Below, in pieces: positions 18,340 to 35,213 of a stretch of DNA of 64,000 nt. Each line of letters begins with the position of its first letter. Positions within the stretch are counted from its first letter, which is position 1. Below the pieces are notes generated by a model, which saw only the letters and a list, made by a program, of their open reading frames with translations, was not told the DNA's origin and searched no databases. The position numbers and the translations under genes are program-made. This stretch comes from Myxococcota bacterium. GTDB lineage: Bacteria > Myxococcota_A > UBA9160 > UBA4427. The stretch spans positions 6,184,918 through 6,248,917 of the forward strand of contig OZ252299.1 of assembly GCA_965250285.1 (NCBI GenBank), given 5' to 3'.

Positions 18340-19710
18340 GTGAGTGCTGAATTCTCTCAGGAGCAGCAGGTCCTCCGCGCGGAGCTCGACGAAGCGCGCG
18401 AGCGACTGGATGGGCTGGCCACCGAGCTGCGCGGCATCGACGCCGAGCTCGATGCGCTCGCAGTCGAACGCCGTCAGTTCGAGATTCTCGATGACGTCTG
18501 CACGTCGATCGAGAAGCTTGGCGAGGCGGGTGGAGCGGATCTGTTCTGGGGTGGACTCCCGGGTGCGAACTTCGACGCGCACGTTCGTGCCGTGCGGAGC
18601 CGAGCCGAGGAGTTCCATCACCGAATCGCCGAGATCGATGCGAGACGCAGCGCACTCGTCGGTCGGATCGCTGACGCCGAGGATGCCTCGTTCGTCCTCG
18701 AGGACGACCTCGCAGAGGCCGAGCACCAGGAGGAGATGAAGAAGCTCGAGTGGGTCATCGAGCGCGAGGACGACTCGCCGATCTTCCAAGCCGGCCGCAT
18801 GCCGTGGGTGCACGGTGGAGAGGACGATGTCCGCTTCCGCAAGGCGCTCTTGCTCGCGATGCTGCTCAGCCTGGTGTTCGGGATCATCCTTCCGATCATT
18901 CCCCTGCCCGAACCGGATCCGTGGCAGGTGGTCGAGGTGCCCGAGCGTCTCACGCGGCTGATCAAGGAAGAGCCGCCCCCGCCGCCGCCGGTCGTGCAGG
19001 AGAAGCTCGAGCCGCAGAAGACCCAGGCGGAGACGCCCGAGGAGCCCGAGAAGCTCGCGACGGATACGAAGCCGAAGGCGGCCCCGACGCCGACGACGTC
19101 GGAGGTGGTTGCTTCGGCCGGCATCCTCGCGCTCCGCGATCAGTTCGCGGGGCTCGCCGATGGCGAGACCAGCTCGCGGCTGGGGACGAGCGCTCGCATC
19201 AACCGGACCGGTGAGTCCGCATCGGGCCAGGCTGGCCGATCGCTCGTCACTACGCAGACGCCGGGTGCGAGTGGTGGCATCGACGTCGGCTCGCTGGGTC
19301 GCGACGCGGTCGGTGGTGGCGGTCAGGCCCTTCAGGGCGTGCAGGTCGCCCGGGCCACGAGCTCGATCGGCGTGGGCGGCGGCAACGATCGCCCGCTGAG
19401 CGACGGCCCGGGGCTCTCGCGAACCGACGAAGAGATTCAGATCGTCTTCGATCGGCACAAGGCAGCGCTCTACCGGCTCTACAACCGCGCGCTGCGCTCG
19501 AACCCGACGCTGCAGGGGCAGATCGTGCTGAAGCTCGTGATCGAGCCCGACGGAAGCGTGTCGCTGTGCGAGGTGAAGTCGTCGGACATGGATGCGCCTG
19601 GCCTCGCCGCCAAGGTCGTCGAGCGCGTGAAGGTCTTCGACTTCGGCGCCAAGGAAGGCATTCCGCCGGTCTCGATCCTGTACCCGATCGACTTCCTGCC
19701 GGCGGCATAG
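18340..19710 (+). CDS. TonB-like energy transducer with AgmX/PglI-type C-terminal domain (GltG-like)
   Basis: N-terminal coiled coil, one TM helix, Pro/Glu-rich and Gly-rich linkers, and C-terminal RTDEEIQIVFDRHKAALYRLYNRALRSNPTLQGQIVLKLVIEPDGSV. Confidence 0.88.
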   Translation: MSAEFSQEQQVLRAELDEARERLDGLATELRGIDAELDALAVERRQFEILDDVCTSIEKLGEAGGADLFWGGLPGANFDAHVRAVRSRAEEFHHRIAEIDARRSALVGRIADAEDASFVLEDDLAEAEHQEEMKKLEWVIEREDDSPIFQAGRMPWVHGGEDDVRFRKALLLAMLLSLVFGIILPIIPLPEPDPWQVVEVPERLTRLIKEEPPPPPPVVQEKLEPQKTQAETPEEPEKLATDTKPKAAPTPTTSEVVASAGILALRDQFAGLADGETSSRLGTSARINRTGESASGQAGRSLVTTQTPGASGGIDVGSLGRDAVGGGGQALQGVQVARATSSIGVGGGNDRPLSDGPGLSRTDEEIQIVFDRHKAALYRLYNRALRSNPTLQGQIVLKLVIEPDGSVSLCEVKSSDMDAPGLAAKVVERVKVFDFGAKEGIPPVSILYPIDFLPAA

Positions 19711-19802
19711 CAGGGCGAAGGATGAGTGCGCACGGTGTGCGCGAGAACGAGAAGAAGGTGAAACGAGGAGAATCCGCGACGTAGGTCAGACGACGTCAAA
19801 GA

Positions 19803-19895
19803 GATTCAGACAAAGGCAAAGCCGTCGAAAGGCGGCGACGCAAAGTCACCGGTCTAACGGGCACACCGCCCCAGGACAGCGGGACTGCCGGAATC
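19803..19895 (+). ncRNA. Cyclic di-GMP-I (GEMM) riboswitch
   Basis: P1 GATTC/GAATC, then GGCAAA, P2 GCCGTC-GAAA-GGCGGC (GNRA loop), GACGCAAAG, and P3 with CCGGTCTAA...GACAGCGGG...TGCCG. All hallmark segments are in order, directly 5' of the giant gene. Confidence 0.92.
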
Positions 19896-19970
19896 GCGCT
19901 CGATGGTCGAGCGGTCTCGGTGGGTCTTCGCAGGTGCATTGCGAGAAGACGAGCACCGAGGCAGAACACC

Positions 19971-22900
19971 TTGCAGCATCAGAGCGACATCCGGGAGCAG
20001 AGGGGCTCCACCGAACGGGCGGCCACGCCGGTTCGGGCGGGGATCCGGCGCGCGATTGCGATCGCGAGCTGGGCGATCGCGCTGCTCTGTCTCTCGGGGG
20101 CCAGCGCTCAGGCGCAGCCGGTGCCAGCGACGTGTCCTGCCCAGCTCGGGACGGAGACGCTCGTTCGGCACGACATGTCGGTGAGCTTCTGCGAGCTGTG
20201 CGATGTCGGCCAGGCGACGATCGTCGTCGAGAACCCGCTGAGTACCTTCCCGGGCGACGTCGACTTCTCGGACATCACCGTCGTCGAGAATCTCCGCAAC
20301 ACGGGTCTGACCTACGCCGGTAACCCGCAGTTCTCGTTCAACAACGCGATCCCCACCGGCGCATTCGCGCCGACGGTATCCGGGACCGACGACGAGATCC
20401 TCACGTGGGATCTGCCGGCGGGCTTCACCCTGCCCGAGGTGCCCGGCTTCGGCACCAGCTCGTCGATCACGATTCAGTTCGACGTCGAACGCCAGAGCTC
20501 GTTCACCGAAGAGGGGCTCGTCACCTCGACGCCCGACCGCGACATCCAGGCGTCGGTCATTCTCGAACCGTCGTGTGCGCCCGGTGAGATCTACGGACAG
20601 TCGACCGGCTTGAACGAGCTGCCGCTGCAGGAGCCCGAGCTCAACCTTGCGCTCTCGGGTCGCAACCTCGACGCGGCGCAGGGCGGCTGGTCCGACCCCG
20701 TCTACGGTCACGAGGGTGACGACATCATCTGGCGTCTGCGCGTGCGCAACGATGGCGAAGCGCCGCTCCAGGATTTCGTCTTCGACATGGCCCTGTTCGA
20801 CAGCGTCGGCGGCCCGGGCGACTTCGAGCTGACCCACATCTGTACGACGAACGGCGCGGCGGCCGCGGCTTCGGCGGGCGCGAGCCCCGCGAACTGTCGG
20901 TCGCTCGCGGGCACCAGCAGCTCCCCGAATCTCGACATTGCGGCGCTCTTCGGCGGCGGCGCGAACCCCTACATCGTGCTCGGACCGAACTCGCAGCGCT
21001 TCTTCTACTTCGCGGGGCGCGTCAACACGAGCTGTGACGAGCTCGATGCGCTGGCCGACAACGCTCAGTGGGGCTGCCAGAGCGAGCCTCCCGTGGGCGG
21101 GATCTCTCAGAGCTCGACGGGCATCACCGACGACGGGACAGGTCTGCTGCGCACCGAGTCTGAGGAGGCTCGGCTCGACTTCGATGTCGACTTCCAGGGC
21201 GTGAACGACCCGAGCCAGCCGCTCGGCGCCCGCGGCAACGTCGTCGTCACGATCAACAACGTGAGCCGCGGAACGATCTACGGCGACACGGACGGCATCG
21301 AGCTGCAGGTCGATCTGCCGGCGCAGTACGTGGTCGACCCCTCGCTGCCGCCGATCTTCGACATGGATCCGGCGTACGGCAACTACCAGGGCATGATCGA
21401 CACCATGTCCTGGGACAACCCCGACCCGGGGACCGATCCCGATCCGTCGGCCGATCCGAACGCCCAGCTGAACAACGACAGCCTGCAGTTCACGCTGACG
21501 AGCTCGAGTCAGAACGCGCCCGGCGGGCCTTATCCGATCCAGGAGCACCTGATTCGCCACGGCGACGTCGTGACGATCACGATCCGCGTCGTTCAGATCG
21601 ATCCCACGTACTACGACCTCGACGCCGACCTCGACATCCGTCTCGAAGATCCGGCGAGCACGCCGATGCCCAACACCGACCCGACCCAGACCTTCGGGGT
21701 CACGGGCCAGGCCGATGTGTCGTACGAAGAGTTCTGCACTGGCAACAACCACCTCGTCAGCGACGTCGAATTCGATACGGCGAACCCCGAAGACCTCGAC
21801 GTCGACATGACAGGCGGCGAGCTCGTCTTCATCCTGACCGACTCGGGCGATCCGTTGCCCCTGTCCGTCGAGCTGACCAACAACGGTGGCCACGACGCCG
21901 ACGACTACCAGGCCTACGTCACCTTTGGCCAGGCCATGCAGGTCTCGACGGTGGCGCCTGGCTGTACGCTCACGACCAATCCGCCGCCGTTGCCCGAGTG
22001 GCAGCTGCCCGATCCGCTGCCCGCCACAGGGACAGTCTACATCTGTGATCGCGGAACGATCGGGCCAGGGGACACCGAAGTCTTCAACTTCGAGGTGGTG
22101 AAGAACCCCACGCCACCGTTCGACGACGACCTGACGTTCCGTGCCGACGTGATCGGCGAGAGTCATCTGGCCGACGGCACGCCGCTGTGGTTCCCCGTGC
22201 CTCAGCCTCGCGGCGACGGCATCACCGATCGCGGCAACAACTACACGGTCGACGGCTTGCGGGCCCGCGTGGTCGGCTACAACCTGCTCAAGACCCAGCT
22301 CGGCGACTGCAACGAGAACAACCCGCCGCCGGGTACGCCCGATGATCTCGTGCAGATCGGCGAGGAGTGTACGTTCCGAGTCGAATCGGGCGGATGGTTC
22401 GGCTTCGAGACGCCGGGCTTCACGTACATCGCAGTCCAGAACGTTCAGGTCGTCGATCAGAACCCCGACGGTCAGACCTACATCAGCTCGACCGATCCGC
22501 TCATCGAGAGCACGACTCAGATTCAGGGCGTGACGTTCACGCCCCCGGCGGTGCCCCTGACGGACGACTGGTTCGACTGGACCTTCAACACCGATCCGTT
22601 GACTCAGCGCATTACCGAGCTCGATCACTGGTTCCGTACGAACTTCGTGACGCGCATGATGAACGACCCGATCGACGCAGCCGGGGCGCCGAACCAGCAC
22701 GCAGCGACGAGCTCGAACGTGCTCACGTCGACGTTCGAGGCGGTCTTCTTCAACCCGTCGATCGGCGGCGAGGAGATCTTCACCCTCGGCCCGTCGACGA
22801 TCGGCTTCCCGCGTGAGGTCTTCCGTCGGGTCGACGTCACGGTGACCGAGCCTCAGCTGACTCTCGTCAAGGAGGTCTGCAACGAGACCCGCTATGGCGT

Positions 22901-25900
22901 GGGTGCGGCGTGCACGAACTTCGTGCCGCTCGCCGACGACGGCGACGCCTTCGACGAGTACGTCTACCGGATCACCGTCACCAACGAGGCAGCGGCCGGC
23001 GGCGTGCCCCGTGCGCCCGCCTACGACGTCACGGTCACGAGCGTGACCGACGCCAGCGACCAGCTCGAGGTGCTCGCGCTGACGGGCGACACGCTCGACA
23101 ACGACGGCGACGCACTCGTCGACGGCGCCGATGCGGCCGGCGAAGGCACGATCACGGACACCGTGGTCGAAAACGGCGTCCCTGCCGAAGTGATCGCATC
23201 GTACACACACAGTGACGCGCTGTTGCGCATCGATCCCGGCGACAGTGTAGTGCTGTACTACCGCGTCGACCCCGACGACGACGTGGCGCCGCTCCAGCAG
23301 CTGATCAGCAGCGTGTCCGCGACGTACGACAGCCTCGAAGGCGACTTCGGAAGTCAGTCGACGCCGCAGCAGCCGAACGGCGACGAGGCGGGTGCGCGCC
23401 AGTACACGTCCGCTCCGGTCGAGGCGACGATCCAGATCATTCCGGTCGAGGTCAGCCCGAAGGAGGTCATCAGCACCTCGAGCACGGCCGTCTCGGGGCC
23501 GGGCGTCGACCAGCCCGCGGTGATCGGCGAGGAGCTCGAGTTCGAGCTGCAGGCTCTGATCCCCGTGTCGCAGCTGCGGAACTTCACGATTCGCGACGAG
23601 CTTCCGGCTGGCCTCACCTGCGCCGAGGCTCCCGACGTCGATCTCGACGCGGCGCCCTACGACGCAGCGGGCTTCGTGCCGGGCGGCGTCTTCACGCCGA
23701 CGTGTACGGCGAACGACGTCATCTGGGACTTCGGCAATCAGACGGTGACGACGTCGAACCGCGTCGACCGACGATTCGACTTCCGCGTGCAGTTCATCGG
23801 CCGCGTCGAGAACGTGGTCGCGAACCAGGATGGGGTGTCGATCGTCAACGGCGGCGGTGGCACCGTCGCGAACGTCGAGTACATCAACGAGAGCGGTGGC
23901 GCCGTCGTGCTGCCCATCGGGGCGGCGACGGTGATCGTGACCGAGCCCCAGGTCGATCTCGTGAAGGCCTTCTCGGTCGCACAGGCCGACGCGGGGGATC
24001 TGACTCGGGTCACCGTGACGGCGACCAACAATGGCACGGCGACGGCCCACAACATCCGCGTACTCGAAGATCTCACGCATCCCGAGCTCTCGTACGCCGG
24101 CGACGTGCAGGGCACGCTGCCGCCGACCGCTGACACGGTCACGTTCGGTCCCGATCAGCCGCTCTTCACCTGGACGCCGGGGCTGACGCTCGCGCCGGGC
24201 GCCTCGGTGAGCTTCTCGTTCGCCGTGCAGGTGGGAACTGGCGTCACGCCTCATGAGGTGCTCGACAACACCATCCAAGCCGACTGGACTTCGCTGGCCG
24301 CGAATACGACGGCCCTCAACTCGACGGGGAGCATCGGCGCCGACGGCGCGGCCGACGGCATGCGCATCGGTGCGCTCCCGAACGCGGCCGACCCGCTCAA
24401 CGACTACGAATCCGAAGCGGACGCCTCGATGGAGGTGCCGCCCCTCGCGTTCACGAAGACCGATCTCGACCCCGCGCTCGCGGCGGAGATCGGCGTTCAC
24501 AAGAGCTACGAGCTCGCGATTCAGCTGCCCGAGGGCGTCACGCAGAACGTCATCATCAACGACGCGCTCGACGCGGGCGACGTCAGCTGGGTGCTCGCGC
24601 ACAACGCGACGTACGACGTCACGTATCAGTTCGATGGCATCTCGCAGGTCAATGGTCAGCCGCCGGCGGAGGCCGCGCTGCTCGCCTTCCCGAGTGATGG
24701 TGAGAGCGGGACCATCACCTGGAACATCGGCGAAGTCGTCACTCTGAGCGAAGACGACCTTACCGTGAACGCGATCACGCCGACGATTCGCGTGACGTAC
24801 TTCGCACGGATCAACAACGACACGGCGACGGACGCGGGCGATTCGCTGCAGAACATCGCGACCACCGACTATACGAACGGCGAGACGGCGGTGACCGAGT
24901 CGCTCGTGTCGGCCGCCGCTCCGATCATCGCCACCGAGAGCACGCTGACGGCGACGAAGGTGCTGGCGAACGTGACCGGCGGCAAGCTGCCGACCGATCC
25001 GCCGGCCTTCAACGACCTGCTCGAGTACACGGTGACGATCGTCAACGCCGGGATCGCGACCGCGTACGACGTCAACGTCGTCGATACGTTGCCCCCCGAG
25101 CTGACGCTCGAGGTCGCGACGACACCGACCGCGACGCTCAACTCTGTGCCGATCGCAGGTTTCGTGGCCGTGCCCGCGGGCTCACCGAGCGGCCCCTTGA
25201 TCTGGGGCAACGGCAACGGTGATGGTTCGATCGACATCCCGTCGGGCGGCTTCGTCGACCTGACGTATCGCATCCGCGTCACCACGCCGCTGCCCGACCC
25301 GAGCGTGCTCGCGAACCGCGTCTGGGTCGACTGGACGTCGCTCGATGGTGCCGACGTTCATGAGCGCACGGGCGCAGGCTGCCCCACGACGACCGCGCCC
25401 AACGACTACTGCTTCGGGCCGGCCGTCGCGAGCGGCACGTCCGTCCCCGTCCCGCCGCCCTCCGCCGTGCTGAAGGAGATCAGTCAGGCTACGGCTTCGG
25501 TCGGCGAGTCGTTCACGTACCGCATTACGGTGCCGTCGACGCCCTACGCCTTCCCGATCTACGACGTGCGCATCACCGACGATCTCGGCGCCTCGGCGGC
25601 CGATCTGCGCTTCGTGCAGGTCGACAAGGTCTCGGTCGCCGGCACCTGGACACCCGTCAACACGGGCACGCCCACGGCGCTGGTCATCGAGGACACGACC
25701 AGCGGAATCGATATCCCGGCCGGTGAGCAGATCGTCGTCGACGTGACGGTGGTGCTCGAAGACACCCCGACGAACGCAACCGGGCTGTCGTTCACCAACG
25801 CCGCCAGCCAGACGTACAACTGGGTCGATGGCGATCCGCTGAGCCAGCGCGCAGGCTTCCCCGGCGTGTCGCCTCCGATGACGATCGTCGGACCCGACAC

Positions 25901-28900
25901 GATGCTCATGGACAAGAGCGGTCCGACCCAGGCGACTGTCGGCGTGCCGGTGACCTACACCCTCGACGTCACGAACACGGGCGACGGTCCGGCGTTCGGG
26001 ATGACGCTCTCGGATCTGCTCCCCGACACCGTCGACGGCGGCACATGCGACGTCGCGCCGACGAACTTCGGCGCGGGCGTGTTCGAATCGAACGGCACGA
26101 CCCCGGTCTCGGGTCCGCTCGCGGAAGGCGCCGACTTCACGGTGACGTTCACCCCGGCGCCGACGTGCCGAGTCGACATCGCGTTCACGGGGACCAACGC
26201 CGTGGTCGGTGCGACCGAACGTCTGATCGTGACGTATGACGCCGCGCTCGACCTCGATACCTCGGATTCGGCCGCGCTCACCAACGTCGCCGGCGCCACC
26301 CAGTGGTTCAGCGCCGAAGGCGCCGACGCGCGGTCGTACACGGGTGCGCTGACCGACGGCACGATCGGCACCGACGACGAGCAGGATGCGACGACCGTCG
26401 CGACGGCACTGCCGCTCTACCGCTTCGAAAAGACGGTGATCAACGTGACGACGGGCCAGGATCCCGCCGTCGACGCGTCGCCGGGCGACACGCTGCGCTA
26501 CCGCCTCGAGGTCGAGAACCTCGGCAGCGTCGCAGGCAGCCCGTTCACCCTCGTCGACGAGCTCGATGCGCTCAACGTCGCGCCCGTCTTCGCACCGGGC
26601 AGTCTCACGATCGTCTCGGCGCCGGGTACCGACGGTTCGAGCGCGACGGGGGGTGCCAACGGCACTGGCCTCGTCAGCATCGCCGACCTGAGCCTGCCGA
26701 ACCTCGGCGATTCGCTCTTCGTCGAGTTCGAGGCGACGCTCGCACCCGTGGTGGCCGCAGGCACGGTGGTCACCAATCAGGGTCAGCTCGTGGTGGGCGG
26801 AAGTCCGTTCGCCCTGAGTGACGATCCCAACGTCGGTGCGCCCCCCGATCCGCTCGTGTTCGGCGACGAAGATCCGACGACGGTGACGATTCAGTCGGCC
26901 CCTGACTTCCTCATCCAGAAGACCTCGGCGTACCTCGACGGTGACCCGGCGGTGCTGCTCGCGGGCGAGCGCATCCAGTACACGATCACCGTGAAGAACG
27001 TCGGCAGCGACGACGCCGCCGATGCGACGCTGCGCGACGCGGTCCCGGCCGGCACGACCTACGTGCCGGGCAGTACGACCTTGAACGGGACGGCGGTGAC
27101 CGATGGAGCGGGCGGGACCTCGCCACTCGCGACCGGTCTCTTGATCTACGCGCCCGAGGATCCGACGCCGGGCGCCATGCGCGCCGACGACTCGGCGACG
27201 ACGACCAACGTTGCGACGCTCGTCTTCGAGGTGCTCGTCGACCCGGCCGCCGCGGACGGCACCGTCATCGCCAACCAGGCTTTCGTGAGCGCCGTTGGTG
27301 GAGGCGTCGTCGATCAACCCTCGGACGATCCTTCGACGCCGCTCGCAGACGATCCGACCCGAGATGTCGTCGGCAATCTGCCGCTGCTCTTCGCGTCGAA
27401 GGATGTCGTGATCGTCGTCGATGGCGGTACGGTCGGTGTCGCCGATCCGGGCGACCGGCTCCGCTACACGATCGCGGTGCAGAACACCGGCTCGATCCCG
27501 GCGACCGTCGCTCAGCTCGTGGACGCCGTGCCGGCGAACACCACCTATGTGGCGGGCAGCACGACGCTCAACGGCCTGGCCGTACCGGATGGCGCCGGCG
27601 GGACGTCGCCGCTCATCGCGGGCATCGACATCGCGTCGACGTCGGGTACGCCGCCGCTCCCGGCAGCCGGGGCGGGCGTGCTCGCGCCCGCTGAGACGGC
27701 CACGATCGTGTTCGATCTCGACATCGATGCCGGCGTCGCGTCGGGGACGATCATCAGCAATCAGGCGACGGTCCAGACGGCCGAGCTGCCCAACCTGCTC
27801 ACCGATGGCGACGGCAACCCGTCGACCGGCCCCGAGCCGACGGTCATCGTGGTCGGGGACGCGCAGGTGCTCACGATCTCGAAGAACGTCATCGTCGTGG
27901 GTGGCGGCGCAGCCCTCGCGGGCGCTGACCTCGAGTACGAGGTCATCGTCAGCAACCCGGGTACGCTGCCGGCGCAGAACGTCATCATCACCGACGATCT
28001 CGGGTTGCCGGTGCCGGGTCAGCTGACCTACGTCCCCGCCAGCGCGACCATGAACGGCCTGCCGGCCGGCATCGCCGTCGTCGGTTCGCTGATCACCGCC
28101 GACTACTCGACCCTGAATGGTCCGCTCGGACCGGGTGAATCGATCACTCTGCGCTTCCGCGCGACCCTCGACGGCGCACTCGCCATCGGGACCGTCGTCT
28201 CGAACACGGCGACCGTCGCCTGGAATGCGCCGGTCCAGACCGAAAGCGCGACCGTGACGATCACCGTTGGTGGCATGCCCGGGGCAGGTGTGTTGTCGGG
28301 TGCGCTCTGGCAGGACATCGACTTCGACCTCGTCCAGGGCGGCGCCGAGCGCGCCCTCGACGGCTGGACCGTCGAGCTGCTCCGCTCGGGCGTGGTGGCG
28401 TTCACGACGCTCACCGACGCAGCCGGCGGATGGGCGATGTCGGGGATCCAGCCGAACGACATCACGGGCGAGGCGTACGCCGTTCGCTTCAGCGCGCCGC
28501 AGGCGGTCGCGACGACCGCGTCGTTGGGCAACACCGATTCCGCGTTCACCGATGGCCCGCAGCTGATCAGCAACGTGCTGGTTTCGTCGGGCTCGGTGCT
28601 CGCCGATCTCAACCTGCCGATCCAGCCGAACGGCGTCGTCTACGACTCGATCGAGCGCGTTCCGATCCCGGGCACGGTGCTCCAGATGCGCAACGCCAAC
28701 ACGGGCGTCGCGCTGCCGAGTGCATGCTTCGACGATCCGGCGCAGCAGGGGCAGGTGACCCTGGCCGACGGCCTGTACAAGTTCGATCTCAACTTCTCCG
28801 ACCCGGCGTGTCCGAGCGGAGGGGGCTACCTGATCGACGTGACGGGCGCGGCGACGGGCTACTCGCCCGGCCTCTCGCTGGTCAACCCGCCGACGACCGA

Positions 28901-31900
28901 CGCGGCCACGGCGCCCTTCGACGTGCCCGGCTGCCCGGGTGGTCTGGGTGATGCGGTGCCGGGCACCGGCGGCGTGTGCGAGATCCAGGCCTCGGAGAAC
29001 CTGCCGCCGGCCACGGTCGCGCCGCGCACCGCGGGCAGCGTCTTCCACGCGCACCTGGTGCTCGACTCGAGCCTCGGCGCTTTCTCGGCCCAGGCCTTCA
29101 ACAACCACATCGCGATGGATCCGGCCCTCGACGCCGCGGTGGCCGTCACCAAGACGACCCCCAACACCGAAGTGGTGCTGGGTCAGCTCGTGCCCTACGA
29201 GATCACCGCGACGAATCAGCTGACCACCGATCTGCTCGACGTCGTGATCGTCGATCGCTACCCGGCCGGTTTCAAATACGTCGACGGCTCGGCCCGCATC
29301 GATGGCGTCGCCATCGAGCCGACTCGGAGCGGTCGCGAGCTGCGATGGCCCGCGATCGACATCCCGCCGGCGGGCAAGGTCAACCTGCAGCTGATCCTTG
29401 CGGTCGGTGCGGGCGTCCGTGAAGCCGAATACGTGAACCGCGCCCAGATCGTGAGCGGCACGGGCGACGTCCCGCTCTCGGGTACGGCGACGGCCACGGT
29501 GCGCGTCGCGCCCGATCCCGACTTCGCGTGCACTGACGTGATTGGCAAGGTCTTCGACGACCACGACCGCGACGGTCACCAGGACGGCGCGGAAGCGGGC
29601 CTCTCGGGCGTGCGCCTGGTGACGCCGCGGGGCCTCGTGGCCACGACCGACGATCACGGTCGCTTCCACATCACCTGCGCCATCGTCCCGGCCGACGGCC
29701 GCGGCAGCAACTTCGTGCTGAAGCTCGACGACCGCACGCTCCCGAGCGGCTATCGCATGTCGACCCGAGCCGTTCAGGTCAAGCGCGCGACGCGCGGTAA
29801 GGCGCTGCGGTTCGGCTTCGGCGCTTCGATCGACCGCGTGGTCGGCCTCGACGTCGCCGACGCGGCCTTCGAGCCCGGCGGTACGGCGCTGCGCCCGCAG
29901 TGGGAAGGCCGCATCGCGCTGCTCGTCGACGAGCTCGAAGAAGACGACTCGACCCTGCGCATCTCGTACATCGGTGACGTCGAGAGCGCCCGCCTCGTCG
30001 ATCGCCGCATGTCGGCTCTGGAGTCGCGCGTGCGCGATGCCTGGCGCGAGCGCAGCGATGCGGCGCTCACGATCGAGAACGAGATCTACTGGCGGCGTGG
30101 CGCGCCGAGTGATCGCTGGAGCCGCTTCGTCCGGCGCCTCAATCCCTGGTCGGGCGACGCCGGCGTGCCGCCCAATGCGGGTGAGATCCTCGAGGCCAGC
30201 AACGGTCAGGCGATCGAGCGCCATCTGCCGCACGACTCCAGCCCGGGTCAGTGGATGACCGATCCCGAGCTGTTCGACAAACAGCGGGGCGACCGCATCG
30301 AGCAGCGCGAGGTCATGAAGGAAGAGGCACGGACCGTCAAGCTGCGCAACGTCGTGCCGCCGATCCGCTTCGACACCGGCGAGGCCGATCTGCCGCCGAG
30401 CTACATCGACAATCTGCGCCGCGTCCTCGACGACATGCAGCACCTGTCGAATGTGCGACTGCACTTCGTGGGCCATGCCGACTCGCAGCCGCTCTCGGGC
30501 CGGCTCGCGAGCGAGTACGGCGACAACGTCGGCCTCTCGCGGGAGCGTTCGGGAGAGGTGGCCGAGTTCGTCCAGCAGGCGCTGGATCTGCAGCCCGAGT
30601 CGATCTCGTTCGCGTGGGCCGGCGACAGCGAGCCGGTCGCGACCAACTCGACGGTCGAGGGCCGCGCGCTCAACCGCCGCGTCGAGGTCGAGGTCTGGTA
30701 CGACGAGTACGACGAGAAGGTCGCGGTCGAAGACGTCGTCGTGAGCGATGACATCAAGCGGGTCAAGGTCTGCCGCGTCGAGACCGTGTGCAAGATGCGC
30801 TTCATCGAGGGGCACAACCGCCGCGCCCGCGTGCGCAACCTCGTCCCGCCGCTGCGCATCGGCGACCGCGGTCTCAGCGTGCCGCAGAGCTTCGTCGATG
30901 AGATCTCGGAGGCACTCGGCAACCTGAGCGACCACAACAACGTGACGGTGAAGCTCGTCGGCTACACCGACTCGGCACCGCTCGCGGGGCGTGAGGCACG
31001 CATCTACGGCACGCACCTCGCGCTGTCGAAGGCCAACGCCCACCGCGCGGCGCTCGCGATCAAGGATGCCCTCGGCCTGCCCAACGCAGCCGTGGCGAGC
31101 GATGGCCGCGGCTCGAGTCGGCCGGTCGCCTCGAACGAGTCGGCGCGCGGTCGCACGCTCAACCGACGCATCGAGGTCGAGTTCTGGTACGACGACCCGC
31201 TGCAGGAGCTCGATGACGATCTGCAGATCTGTCCCGAGGCACTCGGCGACACGATGATCACGAAGGTCTACGACCCGCCGTGGGGTCGCATCCCGTCGCT
31301 CTCGATCGAGGGTGGTGAGCCGAGCATCCCGGTCGATCTCGAGGGTGCGCTGCTGCGCGCGATGAACGACCTCGATGATCGCCAGAACGTGCGGCTCCGC
31401 TTCGTCGGCTATACCGGCAACGAGACCCTCGATCGGCGCACGGCGCTCGTCTACGGCGACGACGTGGGTCTCTCGACGGCGCGCGCGCGCCGCTCGATGG
31501 ATGCCGTCGTGGCCCTCATGGCGCTCGAATCCTCTCAGGCGGAGGCCGAGGGTCGGGGCTACGTCCATTCGGACGACGTCGTGAATGCGGGCTTCACCCA
31601 GGAGGCCGACTCGCTGGTGGTCGTGCAGGTCGTCTACGACGAGCCGGCCGCAAGTGACGACTACGAGGGCGTCGAGATCACGCGGATCACCCGCGAGCTC
31701 GAGCCGCAGGATCCGCTCGCGCTCAACCTGATGCGCATCACCGTCGACGGTGAGCCGGTCGACGATCGCAACCGTAGCTCGGCCGACGTGCAGCGCTGTA
31801 CCGATGTGGCGCTCGAGCGCGCGGCCGTCGAGTTCCGATTCGACTCCCTCACGGCCGACCGGCGCCTTTCGGTGGCGTCCGACGCGCGCATGGTGGCCGC

Positions 31901-34900
31901 CGGCACGGCGGGCGCCGAGGCGGGCGCCGACGCGGCGATCCGATTCAAGGCCTACACCAACTACGGCCACTACATCGAACGCACCGAGGTGCGCGTCTTC
32001 GAGCGCTCGGCTTCGCTCGAGTCGAAGCCGCTGGCCGTGATCGAGGTCGGACCCGACGGCATCGCCGAGTGGCGACCCGAGCCGCGCAACCTGAGCGGCC
32101 CGGTCGAAGAGTTGAAGTTCGTCCTGCGCGCGTATAGCGAGAAGGGTCGCTTCGACGAGACCGTGCCCCAGAGCCTCTGGATGGTGAACGGCACGAGCCG
32201 GGAGATGGCGGCGCGGGCTCCGGGGTCGCCCGCGAACGCCGCCGAGATCCGCGAGGCCGACAAGATGCTCCGCGCGGGTTACGGCGAGACCGACGTGGCG
32301 ATCGCCAACATCGATCTGGGCGGCGCCGGTACCGTGCGCGTGCTCGGGGGCGGCGTGCCCGAGGGCCACAACGTGTGGATCGCAGGCGAGCCCGTGCCAG
32401 TGGCCGAAGGCGGCGAGTTCATTGCCGAGGCCGTGGTGCCCCAGGGCCTGCAGACCGTCGAGGTCGCCATGCTCGACGAAGAGGGCAACGGCGAGCTCTT
32501 CCTGCGTGATCTCGAGGTGAAGAAGAGCGACTGGTTCTACGTCGCGATGGCCGACGTGACGCTTCAGGCCAACCTCGGTGACGGACCGTCTGAGGAGCTG
32601 CAGGGCGAGAATGGGACGATGGATCCCGATTCGTTCGCCGACGGACGCTTCGCGTTCTTCCTGACGGGTCGCTTCGGCAACGACTGGCGGCTGACCGCCA
32701 GCGCCGACACCGAAGAAGGCGAGCTGAAGGATCTCTTCACGAACTTCATGGACAAGTCGCCCGATGCGCTCTTCCGCCGCATCGATCCCGACTATCACTA
32801 CCCGACTTTCGGCGACGACGGCACGGTCGACCAGATGGCACCTTCGTCGGGCAAGTTCTTCGTGAAGCTCGACCAAGGGCCGAACCACGCGATGTGGGGC
32901 AACTTCGGCGTGAGCTACGTCGACAACGAGCTGGCCCGCGTCGAGCGCGGCCTCTATGGCGGTAACCTGCACTACGAGACCGACGCCACGACGAGCTTCG
33001 GCGAGCGGCGCGTGCAGGTCGACGGCTTCGCGGCCGACCCGGGCACGATCTCGAGCCGAGAGGACTTCCGCGGCACGGGCGGCTCGCTCTACTACCTCAA
33101 GCACCGCGACCTGCTGATGGGCTCGGAGCGGCTGCGCATCGAGATTCGTGACAAGGTCACGGGGCTGGTCACGGCGGTCACGTACCTGCAGCCCGACGAA
33201 GACTACGACATCGACTACTTCCAGGGTCGCATCCTGCTGGCGAAGCCGATCTCGGCGACCGCCTCCGACGGGTTGCTGGTGCGCAACGACGGTCTCTCGG
33301 GCAACGAGGCATGGCTCGTCGCGCAGTACGAGTACGCCCCGGGGATCGACGAGATCGATGCGCTCGCGGCCGGTGGTGAGGGCCAGTTCTGGGTCAATGA
33401 CTTCCTGAAGCTCGGCGTCACCGCGTATCGCAACAGCGAGCAGAGCGCCGACAGCAGCCTCTACGGCGCGCATCTGGTCGCGCGGCTCAGCTCGGCCTCG
33501 TGGATGAAGGTGCAGGCGGGCTATAGCGACGGCCTCGTCGGCGCGCAGCTGAGCTCGAACGACGGCGGCTTCGACTTCGACGGCACGACCGCATCGTCGT
33601 TCGCGAATGACGACGCGCTCGCCTTCCGTGGCGATCTGAGCCTCGGGCTCTCCGACGTCTCCGAGGCGCTCGAGGGCGGCCTCACGTTCTACTTCCAGCG
33701 ACTCTACGCCGGCTACTCGGTGCCTGGGCTGTCGGCGCAGAACGACACCGACTTCGTGGGCGGCACGCTCTCGGTGCCGGTGGCCGACCGGCTCGCCGTC
33801 GAGATCAAGGCCGACTACGTCGCCGAGACCGACGGGCTCGTGACCAATACGCAAGAGCTCGACGCGCACTTCGACCTCACCGACGAGATCACGGTGTCGG
33901 CCGGCGTGCGCAACGACGAGCGTGAGGACGACAGCCCGGCGCCGCCCGCGACCCAGCGCGAGGGCGGTCGCACCGACGTCATCGTCGAGGCCGGGTTCGA
34001 CGCCGGTGCGGTCTGGAGCGCCTACGCGTTCGGTCAGGCGACGGTGCGCAAGAACGGCGACCGCGAAGACAACCACCGCGGTGGCGTGGGCGGCCGGGTG
34101 CGCATCAACGATCGGCTCGAGGCCGAGGGTGAGGTGTCGTACGGTGACCAGGGGGCCACGGTCGAGGTGGGCACCAACTACCAGCAGACCGCCGAGACGA
34201 GCCGCTACCTCAGTTACTCGCTCGACAACGAGCGGGCGACGACCGGAGCGAACTCACGCCGCGGCAACCTCACGAGTGGGGCGCGCACGCGACTGTCCGA
34301 CAGCGCGAGCGTGTACCAGGAAGACCGCTACCAGCACAGCGCGTCGGCGAACGGTCTCAGCCGGGCCATCGGTCTCGACTGGGTCGTGAACGAGCGCTGG
34401 ACGCTCGGTGCCGAGTGGGAGTACGGCACGCTGATCGACCCGCAGACGCTCGCCGAGACGAGGCGCAACGCGGGTGGCGGACGCGTGAGCTACCGGTTCG
34501 AAGACCTCTACGTCTCGAGCGGCGTCGAGTACCGATCCGACGACACCCAGCAGCCCGACTCGAGCTGGTCGAAGCGGACGACCTGGCTCTTCCGCAACGA
34601 CGCTCGGCTGCAGGTGACGGACGACTGGCGTCTGCTCGGCAAGTTCAACCACTCGTTCAGCAACAGCTCACTCGGTGAGTTCTTCGACGGGGGCTTCACC
34701 GAGCTCGTGCTGGGCTACGGCTACCGCCCCGTTGCGAACGACAAGCTCGACGTCCTCGCGAAGTACACGTACTTCTTCAACCGCCCGACGACCGACCAGG
34801 TGGGCCAGAACGGGCAGTCGACCCTCTATCTGCAGCGCAGCCACGTCATGTCGGTGGACGTCACCTACGATGTGGCCCGCGACTGGACGTTGGGTGGCAA

Positions 34901-35213
34901 GTACGCCTACCGGCTGGGCGAGCTGAGCCTCGACCGCGAGAACCCCGACTTCTTCGACAACAGCGCCCATCTCTACGTCGGGCGCGTCGACTGGCAGTTC
35001 CTGTCGAAGTGGGAGATCTCGGCCGAGGGTCGCATGCTGCACATGCCGAGCCTGGGCGAGCGCAAGGGCGGCGCGCTCTTCACGCTCTACCGCTACCTCG
35101 GTAAGCACTTCAAGGTCGGCGTCGGGTACAACTTCACCGACTTCTCCGAGGATCTCACCGACCTGAGCTACGACCACCACGGTCTGTTCTTCAACATCAT
35201 CGGTACGCTCTAG
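19971..35213 (+). CDS. Giant surface/outer-membrane protein (~5,080 aa): DUF11/Ig-like repeats, SdrD-B-like domains, OmpA-like domains, C-terminal beta-barrel
   Basis: Uninterrupted 15.3-kb frame (open from 19920; probable TTG start at 19971 after GAGG). Signal peptide ends ASAQA. Repeated PGD.L.Y.I.V.N...D.VP.GT.YV.GS modules, VIGKVFDDHDRDG, and OmpA motifs GHADS..LSRER..NRRVEV and GYTDS..NRRIEV. The last ~850 aa are rich in amphipathic beta-strands. Confidence 0.92.
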   Translation: MQHQSDIREQRGSTERAATPVRAGIRRAIAIASWAIALLCLSGASAQAQPVPATCPAQLGTETLVRHDMSVSFCELCDVGQATIVVENPLSTFPGDVDFSDITVVENLRNTGLTYAGNPQFSFNNAIPTGAFAPTVSGTDDEILTWDLPAGFTLPEVPGFGTSSSITIQFDVERQSSFTEEGLVTSTPDRDIQASVILEPSCAPGEIYGQSTGLNELPLQEPELNLALSGRNLDAAQGGWSDPVYGHEGDDIIWRLRVRNDGEAPLQDFVFDMALFDSVGGPGDFELTHICTTNGAAAAASAGASPANCRSLAGTSSSPNLDIAALFGGGANPYIVLGPNSQRFFYFAGRVNTSCDELDALADNAQWGCQSEPPVGGISQSSTGITDDGTGLLRTESEEARLDFDVDFQGVNDPSQPLGARGNVVVTINNVSRGTIYGDTDGIELQVDLPAQYVVDPSLPPIFDMDPAYGNYQGMIDTMSWDNPDPGTDPDPSADPNAQLNNDSLQFTLTSSSQNAPGGPYPIQEHLIRHGDVVTITIRVVQIDPTYYDLDADLDIRLEDPASTPMPNTDPTQTFGVTGQADVSYEEFCTGNNHLVSDVEFDTANPEDLDVDMTGGELVFILTDSGDPLPLSVELTNNGGHDADDYQAYVTFGQAMQVSTVAPGCTLTTNPPPLPEWQLPDPLPATGTVYICDRGTIGPGDTEVFNFEVVKNPTPPFDDDLTFRADVIGESHLADGTPLWFPVPQPRGDGITDRGNNYTVDGLRARVVGYNLLKTQLGDCNENNPPPGTPDDLVQIGEECTFRVESGGWFGFETPGFTYIAVQNVQVVDQNPDGQTYISSTDPLIESTTQIQGVTFTPPAVPLTDDWFDWTFNTDPLTQRITELDHWFRTNFVTRMMNDPIDAAGAPNQHAATSSNVLTSTFEAVFFNPSIGGEEIFTLGPSTIGFPREVFRRVDVTVTEPQLTLVKEVCNETRYGVGAACTNFVPLADDGDAFDEYVYRITVTNEAAAGGVPRAPAYDVTVTSVTDASDQLEVLALTGDTLDNDGDALVDGADAAGEGTITDTVVENGVPAEVIASYTHSDALLRIDPGDSVVLYYRVDPDDDVAPLQQLISSVSATYDSLEGDFGSQSTPQQPNGDEAGARQYTSAPVEATIQIIPVEVSPKEVISTSSTAVSGPGVDQPAVIGEELEFELQALIPVSQLRNFTIRDELPAGLTCAEAPDVDLDAAPYDAAGFVPGGVFTPTCTANDVIWDFGNQTVTTSNRVDRRFDFRVQFIGRVENVVANQDGVSIVNGGGGTVANVEYINESGGAVVLPIGAATVIVTEPQVDLVKAFSVAQADAGDLTRVTVTATNNGTATAHNIRVLEDLTHPELSYAGDVQGTLPPTADTVTFGPDQPLFTWTPGLTLAPGASVSFSFAVQVGTGVTPHEVLDNTIQADWTSLAANTTALNSTGSIGADGAADGMRIGALPNAADPLNDYESEADASMEVPPLAFTKTDLDPALAAEIGVHKSYELAIQLPEGVTQNVIINDALDAGDVSWVLAHNATYDVTYQFDGISQVNGQPPAEAALLAFPSDGESGTITWNIGEVVTLSEDDLTVNAITPTIRVTYFARINNDTATDAGDSLQNIATTDYTNGETAVTESLVSAAAPIIATESTLTATKVLANVTGGKLPTDPPAFNDLLEYTVTIVNAGIATAYDVNVVDTLPPELTLEVATTPTATLNSVPIAGFVAVPAGSPSGPLIWGNGNGDGSIDIPSGGFVDLTYRIRVTTPLPDPSVLANRVWVDWTSLDGADVHERTGAGCPTTTAPNDYCFGPAVASGTSVPVPPPSAVLKEISQATASVGESFTYRITVPSTPYAFPIYDVRITDDLGASAADLRFVQVDKVSVAGTWTPVNTGTPTALVIEDTTSGIDIPAGEQIVVDVTVVLEDTPTNATGLSFTNAASQTYNWVDGDPLSQRAGFPGVSPPMTIVGPDTMLMDKSGPTQATVGVPVTYTLDVTNTGDGPAFGMTLSDLLPDTVDGGTCDVAPTNFGAGVFESNGTTPVSGPLAEGADFTVTFTPAPTCRVDIAFTGTNAVVGATERLIVTYDAALDLDTSDSAALTNVAGATQWFSAEGADARSYTGALTDGTIGTDDEQDATTVATALPLYRFEKTVINVTTGQDPAVDASPGDTLRYRLEVENLGSVAGSPFTLVDELDALNVAPVFAPGSLTIVSAPGTDGSSATGGANGTGLVSIADLSLPNLGDSLFVEFEATLAPVVAAGTVVTNQGQLVVGGSPFALSDDPNVGAPPDPLVFGDEDPTTVTIQSAPDFLIQKTSAYLDGDPAVLLAGERIQYTITVKNVGSDDAADATLRDAVPAGTTYVPGSTTLNGTAVTDGAGGTSPLATGLLIYAPEDPTPGAMRADDSATTTNVATLVFEVLVDPAAADGTVIANQAFVSAVGGGVVDQPSDDPSTPLADDPTRDVVGNLPLLFASKDVVIVVDGGTVGVADPGDRLRYTIAVQNTGSIPATVAQLVDAVPANTTYVAGSTTLNGLAVPDGAGGTSPLIAGIDIASTSGTPPLPAAGAGVLAPAETATIVFDLDIDAGVASGTIISNQATVQTAELPNLLTDGDGNPSTGPEPTVIVVGDAQVLTISKNVIVVGGGAALAGADLEYEVIVSNPGTLPAQNVIITDDLGLPVPGQLTYVPASATMNGLPAGIAVVGSLITADYSTLNGPLGPGESITLRFRATLDGALAIGTVVSNTATVAWNAPVQTESATVTITVGGMPGAGVLSGALWQDIDFDLVQGGAERALDGWTVELLRSGVVAFTTLTDAAGGWAMSGIQPNDITGEAYAVRFSAPQAVATTASLGNTDSAFTDGPQLISNVLVSSGSVLADLNLPIQPNGVVYDSIERVPIPGTVLQMRNANTGVALPSACFDDPAQQGQVTLADGLYKFDLNFSDPACPSGGGYLIDVTGAATGYSPGLSLVNPPTTDAATAPFDVPGCPGGLGDAVPGTGGVCEIQASENLPPATVAPRTAGSVFHAHLVLDSSLGAFSAQAFNNHIAMDPALDAAVAVTKTTPNTEVVLGQLVPYEITATNQLTTDLLDVVIVDRYPAGFKYVDGSARIDGVAIEPTRSGRELRWPAIDIPPAGKVNLQLILAVGAGVREAEYVNRAQIVSGTGDVPLSGTATATVRVAPDPDFACTDVIGKVFDDHDRDGHQDGAEAGLSGVRLVTPRGLVATTDDHGRFHITCAIVPADGRGSNFVLKLDDRTLPSGYRMSTRAVQVKRATRGKALRFGFGASIDRVVGLDVADAAFEPGGTALRPQWEGRIALLVDELEEDDSTLRISYIGDVESARLVDRRMSALESRVRDAWRERSDAALTIENEIYWRRGAPSDRWSRFVRRLNPWSGDAGVPPNAGEILEASNGQAIERHLPHDSSPGQWMTDPELFDKQRGDRIEQREVMKEEARTVKLRNVVPPIRFDTGEADLPPSYIDNLRRVLDDMQHLSNVRLHFVGHADSQPLSGRLASEYGDNVGLSRERSGEVAEFVQQALDLQPESISFAWAGDSEPVATNSTVEGRALNRRVEVEVWYDEYDEKVAVEDVVVSDDIKRVKVCRVETVCKMRFIEGHNRRARVRNLVPPLRIGDRGLSVPQSFVDEISEALGNLSDHNNVTVKLVGYTDSAPLAGREARIYGTHLALSKANAHRAALAIKDALGLPNAAVASDGRGSSRPVASNESARGRTLNRRIEVEFWYDDPLQELDDDLQICPEALGDTMITKVYDPPWGRIPSLSIEGGEPSIPVDLEGALLRAMNDLDDRQNVRLRFVGYTGNETLDRRTALVYGDDVGLSTARARRSMDAVVALMALESSQAEAEGRGYVHSDDVVNAGFTQEADSLVVVQVVYDEPAASDDYEGVEITRITRELEPQDPLALNLMRITVDGEPVDDRNRSSADVQRCTDVALERAAVEFRFDSLTADRRLSVASDARMVAAGTAGAEAGADAAIRFKAYTNYGHYIERTEVRVFERSASLESKPLAVIEVGPDGIAEWRPEPRNLSGPVEELKFVLRAYSEKGRFDETVPQSLWMVNGTSREMAARAPGSPANAAEIREADKMLRAGYGETDVAIANIDLGGAGTVRVLGGGVPEGHNVWIAGEPVPVAEGGEFIAEAVVPQGLQTVEVAMLDEEGNGELFLRDLEVKKSDWFYVAMADVTLQANLGDGPSEELQGENGTMDPDSFADGRFAFFLTGRFGNDWRLTASADTEEGELKDLFTNFMDKSPDALFRRIDPDYHYPTFGDDGTVDQMAPSSGKFFVKLDQGPNHAMWGNFGVSYVDNELARVERGLYGGNLHYETDATTSFGERRVQVDGFAADPGTISSREDFRGTGGSLYYLKHRDLLMGSERLRIEIRDKVTGLVTAVTYLQPDEDYDIDYFQGRILLAKPISATASDGLLVRNDGLSGNEAWLVAQYEYAPGIDEIDALAAGGEGQFWVNDFLKLGVTAYRNSEQSADSSLYGAHLVARLSSASWMKVQAGYSDGLVGAQLSSNDGGFDFDGTTASSFANDDALAFRGDLSLGLSDVSEALEGGLTFYFQRLYAGYSVPGLSAQNDTDFVGGTLSVPVADRLAVEIKADYVAETDGLVTNTQELDAHFDLTDEITVSAGVRNDEREDDSPAPPATQREGGRTDVIVEAGFDAGAVWSAYAFGQATVRKNGDREDNHRGGVGGRVRINDRLEAEGEVSYGDQGATVEVGTNYQQTAETSRYLSYSLDNERATTGANSRRGNLTSGARTRLSDSASVYQEDRYQHSASANGLSRAIGLDWVVNERWTLGAEWEYGTLIDPQTLAETRRNAGGGRVSYRFEDLYVSSGVEYRSDDTQQPDSSWSKRTTWLFRNDARLQVTDDWRLLGKFNHSFSNSSLGEFFDGGFTELVLGYGYRPVANDKLDVLAKYTYFFNRPTTDQVGQNGQSTLYLQRSHVMSVDVTYDVARDWTLGGKYAYRLGELSLDRENPDFFDNSAHLYVGRVDWQFLSKWEISAEGRMLHMPSLGERKGGALFTLYRYLGKHFKVGVGYNFTDFSEDLTDLSYDHHGLFFNIIGTL

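Follow-up and report, generated by a model that had tools for sequence, protein, structure and literature searches.

The window analysed here is a stretch of 64,000 nucleotides (nt) from a Myxococcota bacterium of the UBA4427 lineage (assembly GCA_965250285.1, contig OZ252299.1, positions 6,184,918 to 6,248,917). It contains a nine-gene operon for a proton-driven motor of the Agl–Glt type, a riboswitch aptamer of the cyclic di-GMP-I (c-di-GMP-I) class and, directly behind them, one giant gene that joins a secreted chain of adhesin-type repeats to OmpA-like domains and a predicted outer-membrane β-barrel (Table 1). Positions are those of the window. Residues are numbered from a GTG at 19920, so that the likely start codon, a TTG at 19971 with GAGG 9 nt ahead of it, is residue 18.

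The giant protein is a fusion of two genes

The open reading frame (ORF; 19971-35213) runs for 5,080 amino acids (aa) free of internal stops and is single-copy in a one-contig genome of 6.25 Mb. In the public run X1, which may be the source sample, one contig spans 19400-35400 with 0 differences, and none of 4 public runs lists an indel across the stretch. Two large ORFs on the opposite strand (1,582 and 2,964 aa) were rejected as Arg-rich shadows of a GC-rich gene. Searches found 146 long relatives, of which 120 were listed, the window's own protein included. The SdrD, last DUF11, second SdrD and barrel segments were matched in all 120; in 114 all four OmpA-like segments were matched too, giving the whole order SdrD–DUF11–SdrD–4×OmpA–barrel in a single chain, and the fusion is therefore not an assembly artefact. 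Among named loci, those closest to the window's carry the labels Myxococcota, deltaproteobacteria or uncultured Spirochaetales. A first-pass annotation, made from the letters of the window alone, had proposed a single chain of about 5,080 aa behind a Sec signal, and both proposals hold; judged by eye, the signal has a hydrophobic stretch followed by an AxA site at residues 63–65.

The protein is a fusion of two usually adjacent genes, one for the passenger and one for the barrel protein. Neither the junction at residues 3396–3420 nor the riboswitch described below figures in the first-pass annotation. Residues 3420–5097 match a free-standing signal-peptide protein of about 1,700 aa that comprises three OmpA-like domains, small β-domains and the barrel. 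Among 120 listed of the 3,345 shorter relatives found, 81 are 1,550–1,800 aa long; 77 of these 81 align from residues 3401–3430 to the end, nearly all with a start that looks by eye like a signal peptide. We examined 68 loci (20 near long relatives, 42 chosen from match lists and 6 of 25 plasmid records), some of which duplicate a place. Five (L002, L004, L006, L016 and L067; L and G numbers are our labels for loci and genomes) were too short to class as fused or split, and two genomes, G392 and G087, stayed unplaced on contigs of 3.5 and 6.8 kb. In all 30 distinct split loci the barrel gene directly follows a gene whose end region matches the second SdrD-B domain; in 22 of them that upstream gene also matches the first OmpA-like domain, OmpA0. 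The first-pass annotation had asked whether homologues are split into separate genes; they often are. Ahead of this end module passenger length ranges between about 1,200 aa and more than 6,000 aa, and the repeats are of the DUF11, DUF7507, SdrD-B, Calx-beta or BppU-Ig type. Fused forms are scattered over several separate parts of the tree, and two-gene versions occur in the cultured non-pathogens Sinorhizobium meliloti, Sulfitobacter guttiformis, Phyllobacterium and Lentisalinibacter. The pairs on accessory plasmid A of S. meliloti T073 and on pSG53 of S. guttiformis have no motor, whereas Lentisalinibacter salinarum X77 is motor-linked. Databases wrongly label barrel relatives 'flagellar motor protein MotB' or 'TonB-dependent receptor'.

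Several loci show variations on this layout. In L010 and L017 the passenger part is broken by frame breaks, through sequencing error or decay, with the barrel junction still fused. An open frame of 11,777 aa (G254:C2; L050-L051) ends in the same barrel type. The Acinetobacter haemolyticus plasmid p4 (L065 8165-20530) and L041-L045 encode a distant single-chain family of about 2,000 aa (DUF11–SdrD-B–OmpA–barrel), which stands among small DUF11 genes, with further DUF11 genes after it, in a pilus-operon-like setting. In Rhizobiaceae (L039 10078-13222, the same as L019) three DUF7507/DUF11 genes of 300–340 aa precede the passenger–barrel pair. Signalling genes stand near pairs that have no motor: in Sinorhizobium one for a GGDEF protein lies downstream, and in Eleftheria those for a response regulator, FecR and CHASE2 lie upstream (L061, L062).

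The passenger resembles fibrillar adhesins

The passenger (residues 66–3395) comprises 16–17 DUF11/CLIPPER repeats, two SdrD-B domains and a trimmed OmpA-like domain. Our own hidden Markov model (HMM) placed 16 DUF11-type units at E<0.002 between residues 84 and 3205 and matched part of a seventeenth, which probably lies at about 420–630. Pfam DUF11 matched at E 3.9e-28 and 3.2e-19, and TIGR04226 scored 79.8 bits on the stalk against a cut-off of 30. These results bear out the Ig/DUF11-like repeats of the first-pass annotation, including the 18-residue motif TTLNGxAVxDGAGGTSPL shared by two of them (27075 and 27561). Its SdrD-B-like domains at about 28290 and 29535 stand as well: the Pfam match to the first begins at about 28305, and the second (29520-29834) was recognized from its model fold. 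Two other readings needed correction. Counted up to where SdrD-B domain 2 ends, the passenger measures about 3,240 aa, not about 2,800 aa, and the cited DxDxDG-like calcium motif is of the DxDGD form; a strict DxDxDG is present in the protein only at residue 3214, within the second SdrD-B domain.

DUF11/CLIPPER domains form the stalks of surface fibrillar adhesins, which in Proteobacteria end in a C-terminal OmpA-like 'anchor' (PMC12617251, PMC10952558), and a Lys–Asp–Asn isopeptide bond has been shown in the CLIPPER domain 9IFR (Costa et al. 2025, PMC12617251). The window protein has the tandem DUF11 repeats behind a signal peptide that mark such adhesins, and it has the triads. Residues K3078/D3112/N3173 of the last repeat align with the triad of 9IFR (sequence E 0.078; the Asp count in this alignment differs by one from the published number), and across 38 rows the Asp never varies, while the Asn shows conservation of at least 90%. 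By eye we read a triad in 11 repeats, one of them with Glu. Triads, which the first-pass annotation proposed to look for, are present; the bonds themselves are a prediction. The repeats of the head, which was found in 39 of the 120 listed long homologues, are mostly without a triad and have Cys pairs instead. The mature passenger holds 27 cysteines, the OmpA/N region 4 and the barrel 0.

The 340-aa end module was modelled with AlphaFold2 (AF2) at a pLDDT of 89.8 as a CLIPPER domain, a CnaB/SdrD-B domain and a β-α-β-α-β domain. Fold searches returned SdrD, Gram-positive pilins (the top Foldseek rows) and 9IFR (Z 12.5, root-mean-square deviation (rmsd) 2.7 Å, 117 residues), with the third domain barely covered. 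A sequence search of the PDB with three stalk repeats gave nothing under E 0.04.

Four OmpA-like domains join passenger and barrel

Pfam and hhalign place four OmpA-like domains, OmpA0–OmpA3, between the repeats and the barrel, in agreement with the three to four peptidoglycan-binding-type domains that had been expected there and with the two intact NRR(V/I)E motifs, which belong to OmpA1 (30672) and OmpA2 (31161). OmpA3 aligns with OmpA1 at an hhalign probability of 100%. OmpA0, which models as β-α-β-α-β, aligns with OmpA1 at a probability of 75% (E 2.5e-5); with the OmpA1 sequence alone as target, hhalign matched the anchor alignment at E 0.078. At the Asp and Arg positions that bind peptidoglycan in OmpA-like domains, OmpA1 homologues keep the pair (Asp in 204 of 208, Arg in all 208), and so do those of OmpA0 (121 and 124 of 125, respectively). 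The barrel proteins of Sinorhizobium, Sulfitobacter and Phyllobacterium have no OmpA match, while the passengers there keep OmpA0. The OmpA0 model is short of one usual strand of the OmpA fold, and a strand-helix-strand element after OmpA3 (residues 3941–3976, nt 31740-31847) reached a pLDDT of about 50–78 when folded alone; the two might complete each other.

The C terminus is predicted to form a 40-strand barrel

We folded residues 3920–5097 with 63 sequences, chosen from 123 for a size limit, and obtained a model with a pLDDT of 82.9 and a pTM of 0.79 (five models, 79–83). Between residues 4204 and 5095 we counted 40 membrane-type strands with alternating hydrophobicity, a count that leaves out a β-domain of about 105 aa after strand 7 and one loop hairpin. 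The C terminus thus models as a barrel far larger than 12 strands, as the first-pass annotation had anticipated, and its estimate of about 850 aa gives way to about 895 aa for the barrel plus about 260 aa of small β-domains that separate it from OmpA3. Loops are long after odd strands and mostly short turns after even strands, which, following the usual pattern of barrels, would place both termini in the periplasm. The outer loops hold a helical loop of 49 aa and the 105-aa β-domain. By geometry, with an assumed shear of 44–48, the backbone would be 73–75 Å wide. Alignments with small barrels run across model residues 288..1178 and so point to contact between strands 1 and 40. The final residue is Phe or Tyr in 51 of the 63 aligned sequences, and conservation peaks at the seam loops and strands (0.57–0.63, against 0.38 mid-barrel).

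The inserted β-domain (residues 4374–4480, nt 33039-33359) matches chain R of 8HQO, a neck protein of phage DT57C (Z 8.0, rmsd 2.0, 69 residues), and a phage tail-tube model was matched in 4 of 34 barrel homologues (E 0.0024), a weak phage likeness by two methods.

In fold searches with the barrel, Foldseek returned generic barrel matches only, the best template-modelling (TM) score over the query being 0.21 (SlpA; SprA 0.18, Cir/BtuB 0.14–0.15). The top rows of VIA-align were FimD (Z 14.2, rmsd 15.3, 9% identity), mitochondrial barrels and SprA. PDB sequence and profile searches with the barrel gave nothing under E 0.04 and did not list SprA; Pfam and NCBIfam have no family for it beyond a weak OMP_b-brl match below cut-off (E 1.8e-5); and the ESM Atlas gave only unnamed or OmpA/MotB-labelled clusters. 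The family itself is large, with 3,199 clusters (50% identity) matching the barrel at E≤0.001 and 919 at E≤1e-30. A covariance analysis of anchor module against barrel (188 paired rows, effective 158) yielded clade markers as its top pairs, did not recover known strand neighbours and was rejected as uninformative.

The FimD row, the pilin rows for the anchor module and the small DUF11/DUF7507 genes that flank barrel relatives in L019/L039 and on the A. haemolyticus plasmid would fit a barrel that acts as an usher-like assembly platform, with the long chain as a pre-polymerized pilus to which other clades add small DUF11 proteins through the pore. We give this reading little credence, and it departs from the one that we prefer mainly for the small-subunit clades. 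The FimD match has an rmsd of 15 Å and 9% identity, no chaperone gene lies nearby, and no small DUF11 genes stand beside the gene or elsewhere in the genome (E≤1e-6).

A fibre that would cross its own barrel

Taken together, these features make it probable that the protein is a surface adhesin whose fibre passes through its own predicted 40-strand barrel and whose base is held on the cell wall by OmpA-like domains. The first-pass annotation had likewise proposed that the passenger would loop out through a large pore. High c-di-GMP would set expression through the aptamer, as for attachment and biofilm genes. Sec would export the chain, and the repeats would fold in the periplasm, the head locked by disulfides and the stalk by Lys–Asn isopeptide bonds, with the last 895 residues forming a barrel predicted to be wide enough for folded Ig-type domains. 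By strand parity the N-terminal side of the barrel (Ig-like domain, β-sandwich and OmpA1–3) would be periplasmic. In split relatives the passenger gene ends with OmpA0; here about 25 residues join this domain to OmpA1, so the two share a compartment, and if OmpA1 binds peptidoglycan the end of the passenger is periplasmic. It follows that the 20 domains either all remain inside or lie on a chain that crosses the membrane ahead of OmpA0. A crossing through the barrel is favoured by the length of the passenger, its variable tips, its isopeptide-type stalk, the riboswitch and the fact that such passengers are strictly paired with so wide a pore. The chain would cross in or near the conserved DUF11–SdrD-B module, with OmpA0 serving as a retention plug. 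Ig-type repeats measure 4–5 nm each, so about 20 domains would make a fibre of 80–100 nm, too long for the periplasm.

If all the repeats stayed inside, they could form a scaffold bracing the motor or the outer membrane, with the barrel as a gated pore for other large cargo. This would require no threading, a Sec signal with OmpA-like domains alone gives a periplasmic protein, and the motor resembles plug-opening TonB/Tol systems. We nevertheless consider it distinctly improbable, given the spread in passenger length, the exchangeable N-terminal domains, the reports of CLIPPER repeats from surface adhesins and the retention of passenger and barrel side by side in all 30 split loci.

The passenger could also be exported and then cut loose, or cross while the BAM machinery assembles the barrel, making the barrel a one-use exporter. 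In other systems proteases release retained adhesins under c-di-GMP control. Type V passengers cross via a hybrid barrel with BamA (PMC13721041). OmpA0, however, keeps its binding residues and we saw no protease gene in the conserved block; we give the one-use exporter next to no weight against a fibre retained in its own barrel.

Table 1 Features of the locus, in window coordinates.
Feature	Position	Strand	Basis
195-aa secreted protein, first motor-operon gene	10063..10650	+	No Pfam/NCBIfam match; first of block in L022, L025, L028, L029
632-aa tetratricopeptide repeat (TPR) protein, GltC-like by inference from size and order	10652..12550	+	Pfam TPR; kept in block
1,046-aa TPR protein with lipobox-like Cys, GltD-like by inference from size and order	12547..15687	+	Pfam TPR; kept in block
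211-aa TPR lipoprotein, GltE-like	15690..16325	+	NCBIfam gliding_GltE E 2.5e-13, below curated cut-off
102-aa small secreted protein	16329..16637	+	No family match; kept in block
AglR-like MotA/TolQ/ExbB proton-channel subunit	16679..17329	+	Pfam PF01618 E 1.4e-25
ExbD/TolR subunit 1, AglQ/S-like	17333..17827	+	Pfam PF02472
ExbD/TolR subunit 2, AglQ/S-like	17824..18333	+	Pfam PF02472
GltG-like TonB-type transducer with AgmX/PglI C-terminal domain	18340..19710	+	NCBIfam NF033768 57 bits, cut-off 40; gliding_GltG E 2.8e-13, below cut-off
c-di-GMP-I riboswitch aptamer	19805..19892	+	Rfam RF01051, 83 bits, gathering score 35, model 1-87
TTG start and Sec signal peptide	19971..20114	+	Sequence, judged by eye
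Variable head: 7-8 divergent Cys-rich DUF11-type repeats, residues 66-1175	20115..23444	+	Own HMM
Stalk: 10 CLIPPER/DUF11 repeats with Lys-Asp(Glu)-Asn triads	23445..28229	+	Pfam DUF11, TIGR01451, TIGR04226; triads by eye
SdrD-B domain 1 with inserted Cys-containing domain	28230..29120	+	Pfam SdrD_B E 2.2e-10
Conserved passenger end: last CLIPPER repeat (3068-3200), SdrD-B/CnaB domain 2 (3201-3305), OmpA0 (3306-3395)	29121..30104	+	AF2, 9IFR fold match, split loci
Fusion junction: short variable Pro/Gly/Ser-rich linker, residues 3396-3420	30105..30179	+	Stop codon and new signal peptide here in relatives
OmpA1-3: residues 3447-3595, 3636-3760, 3795-3910	30258..31649	+	Pfam OmpA, hhalign, conservation
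Strand-helix-strand element, β-sandwich, Ig-like domain; predicted periplasmic or plug	31740..32522	+	AF2 secondary structure
Predicted 40-strand outer-membrane barrel, residues 4204-5097	32529..35213	+	AF2, strand count, fold searches

Motor operon and riboswitch in one clade

The upstream operon has the composition by which an Agl–Glt core complex is recognized: one TolQ-like and two TolR-like subunits and a TonB-like GltG. Models for GltC and GltD gave no match at E≤0.01 and that for GltE matched below its cut-off; three TPR proteins are of fitting size. The 195-aa protein is likely the 'additional gene' of the core complex, a name that we carry over from Luciano et al. 2011. The AglR-like gene is without a close paralogue: the next-best match in the genome is at 34% identity.

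This block lies directly upstream of the passenger in the window and at 13 further loci, in 5 of which only gltG, or gltG with the exbD genes, is in view. The motor-linked loci fall in one barrel clade of 22 rows (SH-aLRT 82, or 96 with the sister row), in a tree that omits three duplicate loci; L028 and L029 have no barrel in view. Outside the clade there was no gltG match upstream in the 19 loci with the passenger start in view. We also surveyed genomes, some of them incomplete, with one query each (AglR at E≤1e-35), so that a missing match means 'not found', not 'absent'. Among 351 gammaproteobacterial genomes, 41 had the barrel, 68 AglR, 23 both and 5 the two adjacent; for 121 genomes of the bacterium's own phylum the counts were 32, 49, 14 and 3. 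No motor-gene match was obtained in 18 of the 41 and 18 of the 32 barrel-bearing genomes, respectively. One family of the phylum had the barrel in 10 of 10 genomes and AglR matches in 0 of 10, and in the bacterium's own family 3 of 6 genomes held both genes and the other 3 neither. Because so many barrel-bearing genomes gave no match, and adjacency is confined to one clade, the barrel family appears not to need this motor; the need for an energized motor that the first-pass annotation raised finds no support as a general requirement. In five genomes (G121, G125, G332, G384 and G415) another AglR-type gene, more distantly related, stands apart from the barrel, which points to core complexes of at least two kinds.

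In the motor clade, the adjacent proton motor may act through GltG and the TPR lipoproteins to pull on the barrel or on the base of the fibre, and so speed export, open the plug or tension the fibre; export as such would need no motor, since most other clades are without one. Within the same topology the motor could instead be central, with the core complex moving or retracting the barrel-anchored fibre to give surface motility or reversible attachment, as in Myxococcus Agl–Glt. The complete nine-gene block in the window and in relatives of several phyla speaks for this, as do the both-or-neither pattern in the bacterium's own family and a dedicated AglR paralogue (61–84% identical) that accompanies the barrel while a second copy stands elsewhere in G121, G332, G384 and G415. 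A c-di-GMP switch suits attachment better, and the three extra OmpA-like domains would pin motor-linked barrels to the cell wall instead of leaving them free to move. Luciano et al. 2011 (PMC3169522) argue that gliding is not driven by the core complex on its own. We therefore regard a central motor as unlikely and keep to a fibre crossing its own barrel, which the motor would assist.

The aptamer lies 79 nt ahead of the start codon, behind the motor operon, and is the only RF01051 match in the genome (150 of 164 candidates scored). An aptamer in the corresponding position was found at 8 of 14 motor-linked loci and at 0 of 19 others. Both Gs at the start of P1 are invariant in the 8 copies and may include the equivalent of Vc2 position 20, where a G marks c-di-GMP and an A c-AMP-GMP (PMC6140456). 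A long hairpin (z −3.3) predicted to cover the start region would be consistent with control at translation, and 19600-20100 showed neither a sigma-70-like promoter nor a terminator on the same strand. Downstream, a DevBCA-type ABC exporter whose ATPase has a C-terminal TerB-like domain (35383-38453) was rejected as part of the system, since L001 is the only locus with a DevB match after the gene. At 84-7028 a tyrosyl-tRNA synthetase gene is followed by an rRNA operon (16S, two tRNAs, 23S, 5S), some 3 kb ahead of the motor operon.

Several points weigh against a fibre threaded through its own barrel. The passage of the passenger through the pore is a deduction, and the barrel's closure, pore width and plug position are read from secondary structure and alignment ranges. 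A threaded fibre would also require 20 folded domains to be pushed out in clades without the motor. Kinship of OmpA0 to OmpA is read from 40 aligned columns. In OmpA2, Asn replaces the Arg here (Asp is kept in 203 and Arg in 157 of 207 homologues), and OmpA3 is without both the Asp and the NRRVE motif, so only two of the four domains look fully binding-competent. The riboswitch is missing from 6 of 14 motor-linked loci. Finally, the loci were hand-picked from match lists and kin are not independent, and the barrel tree is a quick one of 53 rows, its careful search unfinished, with the clade at SH-aLRT 82.

Comparison with known systems

Parts of this system are already known, namely CLIPPER adhesins with an OmpA 'anchor' and the core complex. 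Adhesins of the Acinetobacter silvestris B9T28_05395 type (Costa et al. 2025; Barringer et al. 2023) likewise have a signal peptide, a variable tip, a CLIPPER stalk with triads and disulfides and a C-terminal OmpA-like domain; unlike them, the window protein runs on into three more OmpA-like domains and a barrel. Their export route goes unnamed in the available text, in which 'barrel' and 'secretion' do not occur in PMC12617251 and 'secretion' does not occur in PMC10952558. The Agl–Glt core complex of non-gliding bacteria has the same operon make-up of TolQ-like, two TolR-like, GltG, TPR proteins and an extra gene, to which the available text of its description (Luciano et al. 2011, PMC3169522) assigns neither a function nor a partner in the outer membrane. 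The core complex in the window, unlike the published one, is linked to an adhesin–barrel. Most core complexes in the gammaproteobacterial sample are unlinked, with 5 of 68 motor-matching genomes having it adjacent to the barrel.

Like a type Va autotransporter, the protein carries its passenger N-terminal to a barrel in one chain, but it has 40 predicted strands, not 12, and four OmpA-like and three further domains in place of a short pore-filling linker; the first-pass view that it is not a classical type Va protein holds. As in type Vb secretion, cargo and pore form a dedicated adjacent pair in all 30 split loci, but the barrel has 40 predicted strands, not 16, and Pfam and NCBIfam return no POTRA or Omp85 match. 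In contrast to both types, about 900 aa of predicted periplasmic domains intervene, and the Ig-type passenger is likely folded before export. Nor is it a TonB-dependent receptor, the RefSeq label of several relatives, which would have 22 strands and a plug; the TM scores to Cir and BtuB are those given above.

SprA (PDB 6H3I, 8GL6) offers another comparison. It is a giant single-chain barrel of 36 strands that exports folded cargo with a conserved C-terminal cargo module and is coupled to a proton motor via TPR lipoproteins, and the present system is alike in its giant single-chain barrel, C-terminal cargo module and proton-motor link. SprA aligned with the barrel model over 646 residues, the most of any chain (Z 12.6, rmsd 13.2, 10% identity), and the SprA model TIGR04189 weakly matched 2 of 34 family members (E 0.035). 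The barrel here, however, has 40 predicted strands in 895 residues, whereas SprA has 36 in over 2,100. In contrast to the type IX secretion system, there is one dedicated cargo, retained or fused, and the motor is of a different family; PorV and PorKLMN were not among the scanned neighbours, the genome not having been searched for them. LapA and MpIBP are giant repeat adhesins held in a pore by a periplasmic end domain under c-di-GMP control. With these retained type I adhesins the window system would share giant repeats, periplasmic retention and c-di-GMP control, but it would be Sec-dependent and of opposite polarity, its C-terminal end being inside, and it has a single-chain barrel in place of TolC and no conserved ABC exporter. 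By analogy, the system would function most nearly as a hybrid between type IX secretion and the retained adhesins of type I. Among open-licence PMC and bioRxiv texts, subscription journals being out of reach, we found no paper on the barrel or the adhesin–barrel pair, and the available text of two reviews (PMC13067283, PMC13721041) describes no such system.

Implications

The single-chain fusion constrains topology, and the partner barrel is a concrete candidate for how Gram-negative DUF11–OmpA adhesins cross the outer membrane. One core-complex clade in non-gliders gains a fixed partner and a c-di-GMP switch, where function was left open in 2011. A 40-strand single-chain barrel, if correct, would extend the size range of outer-membrane proteins; to our knowledge it would be larger than any that has been solved. 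More tentatively, and with somewhat less than even confidence, we suggest that these proteins represent a widespread new secretion class, in which a single-chain 40-strand barrel exports folded, isopeptide-locked adhesins recognized through a C-terminal DUF11–SdrD-B module, an OmpA-like plug retains them, and one clade has recruited an ancestral Agl–Glt motor that drives or tensions the device. If so, the fused form would be a one-gene version of the whole machine, and the Agl–Glt motor would gain a long-missing job as a step towards myxobacterial gliding.

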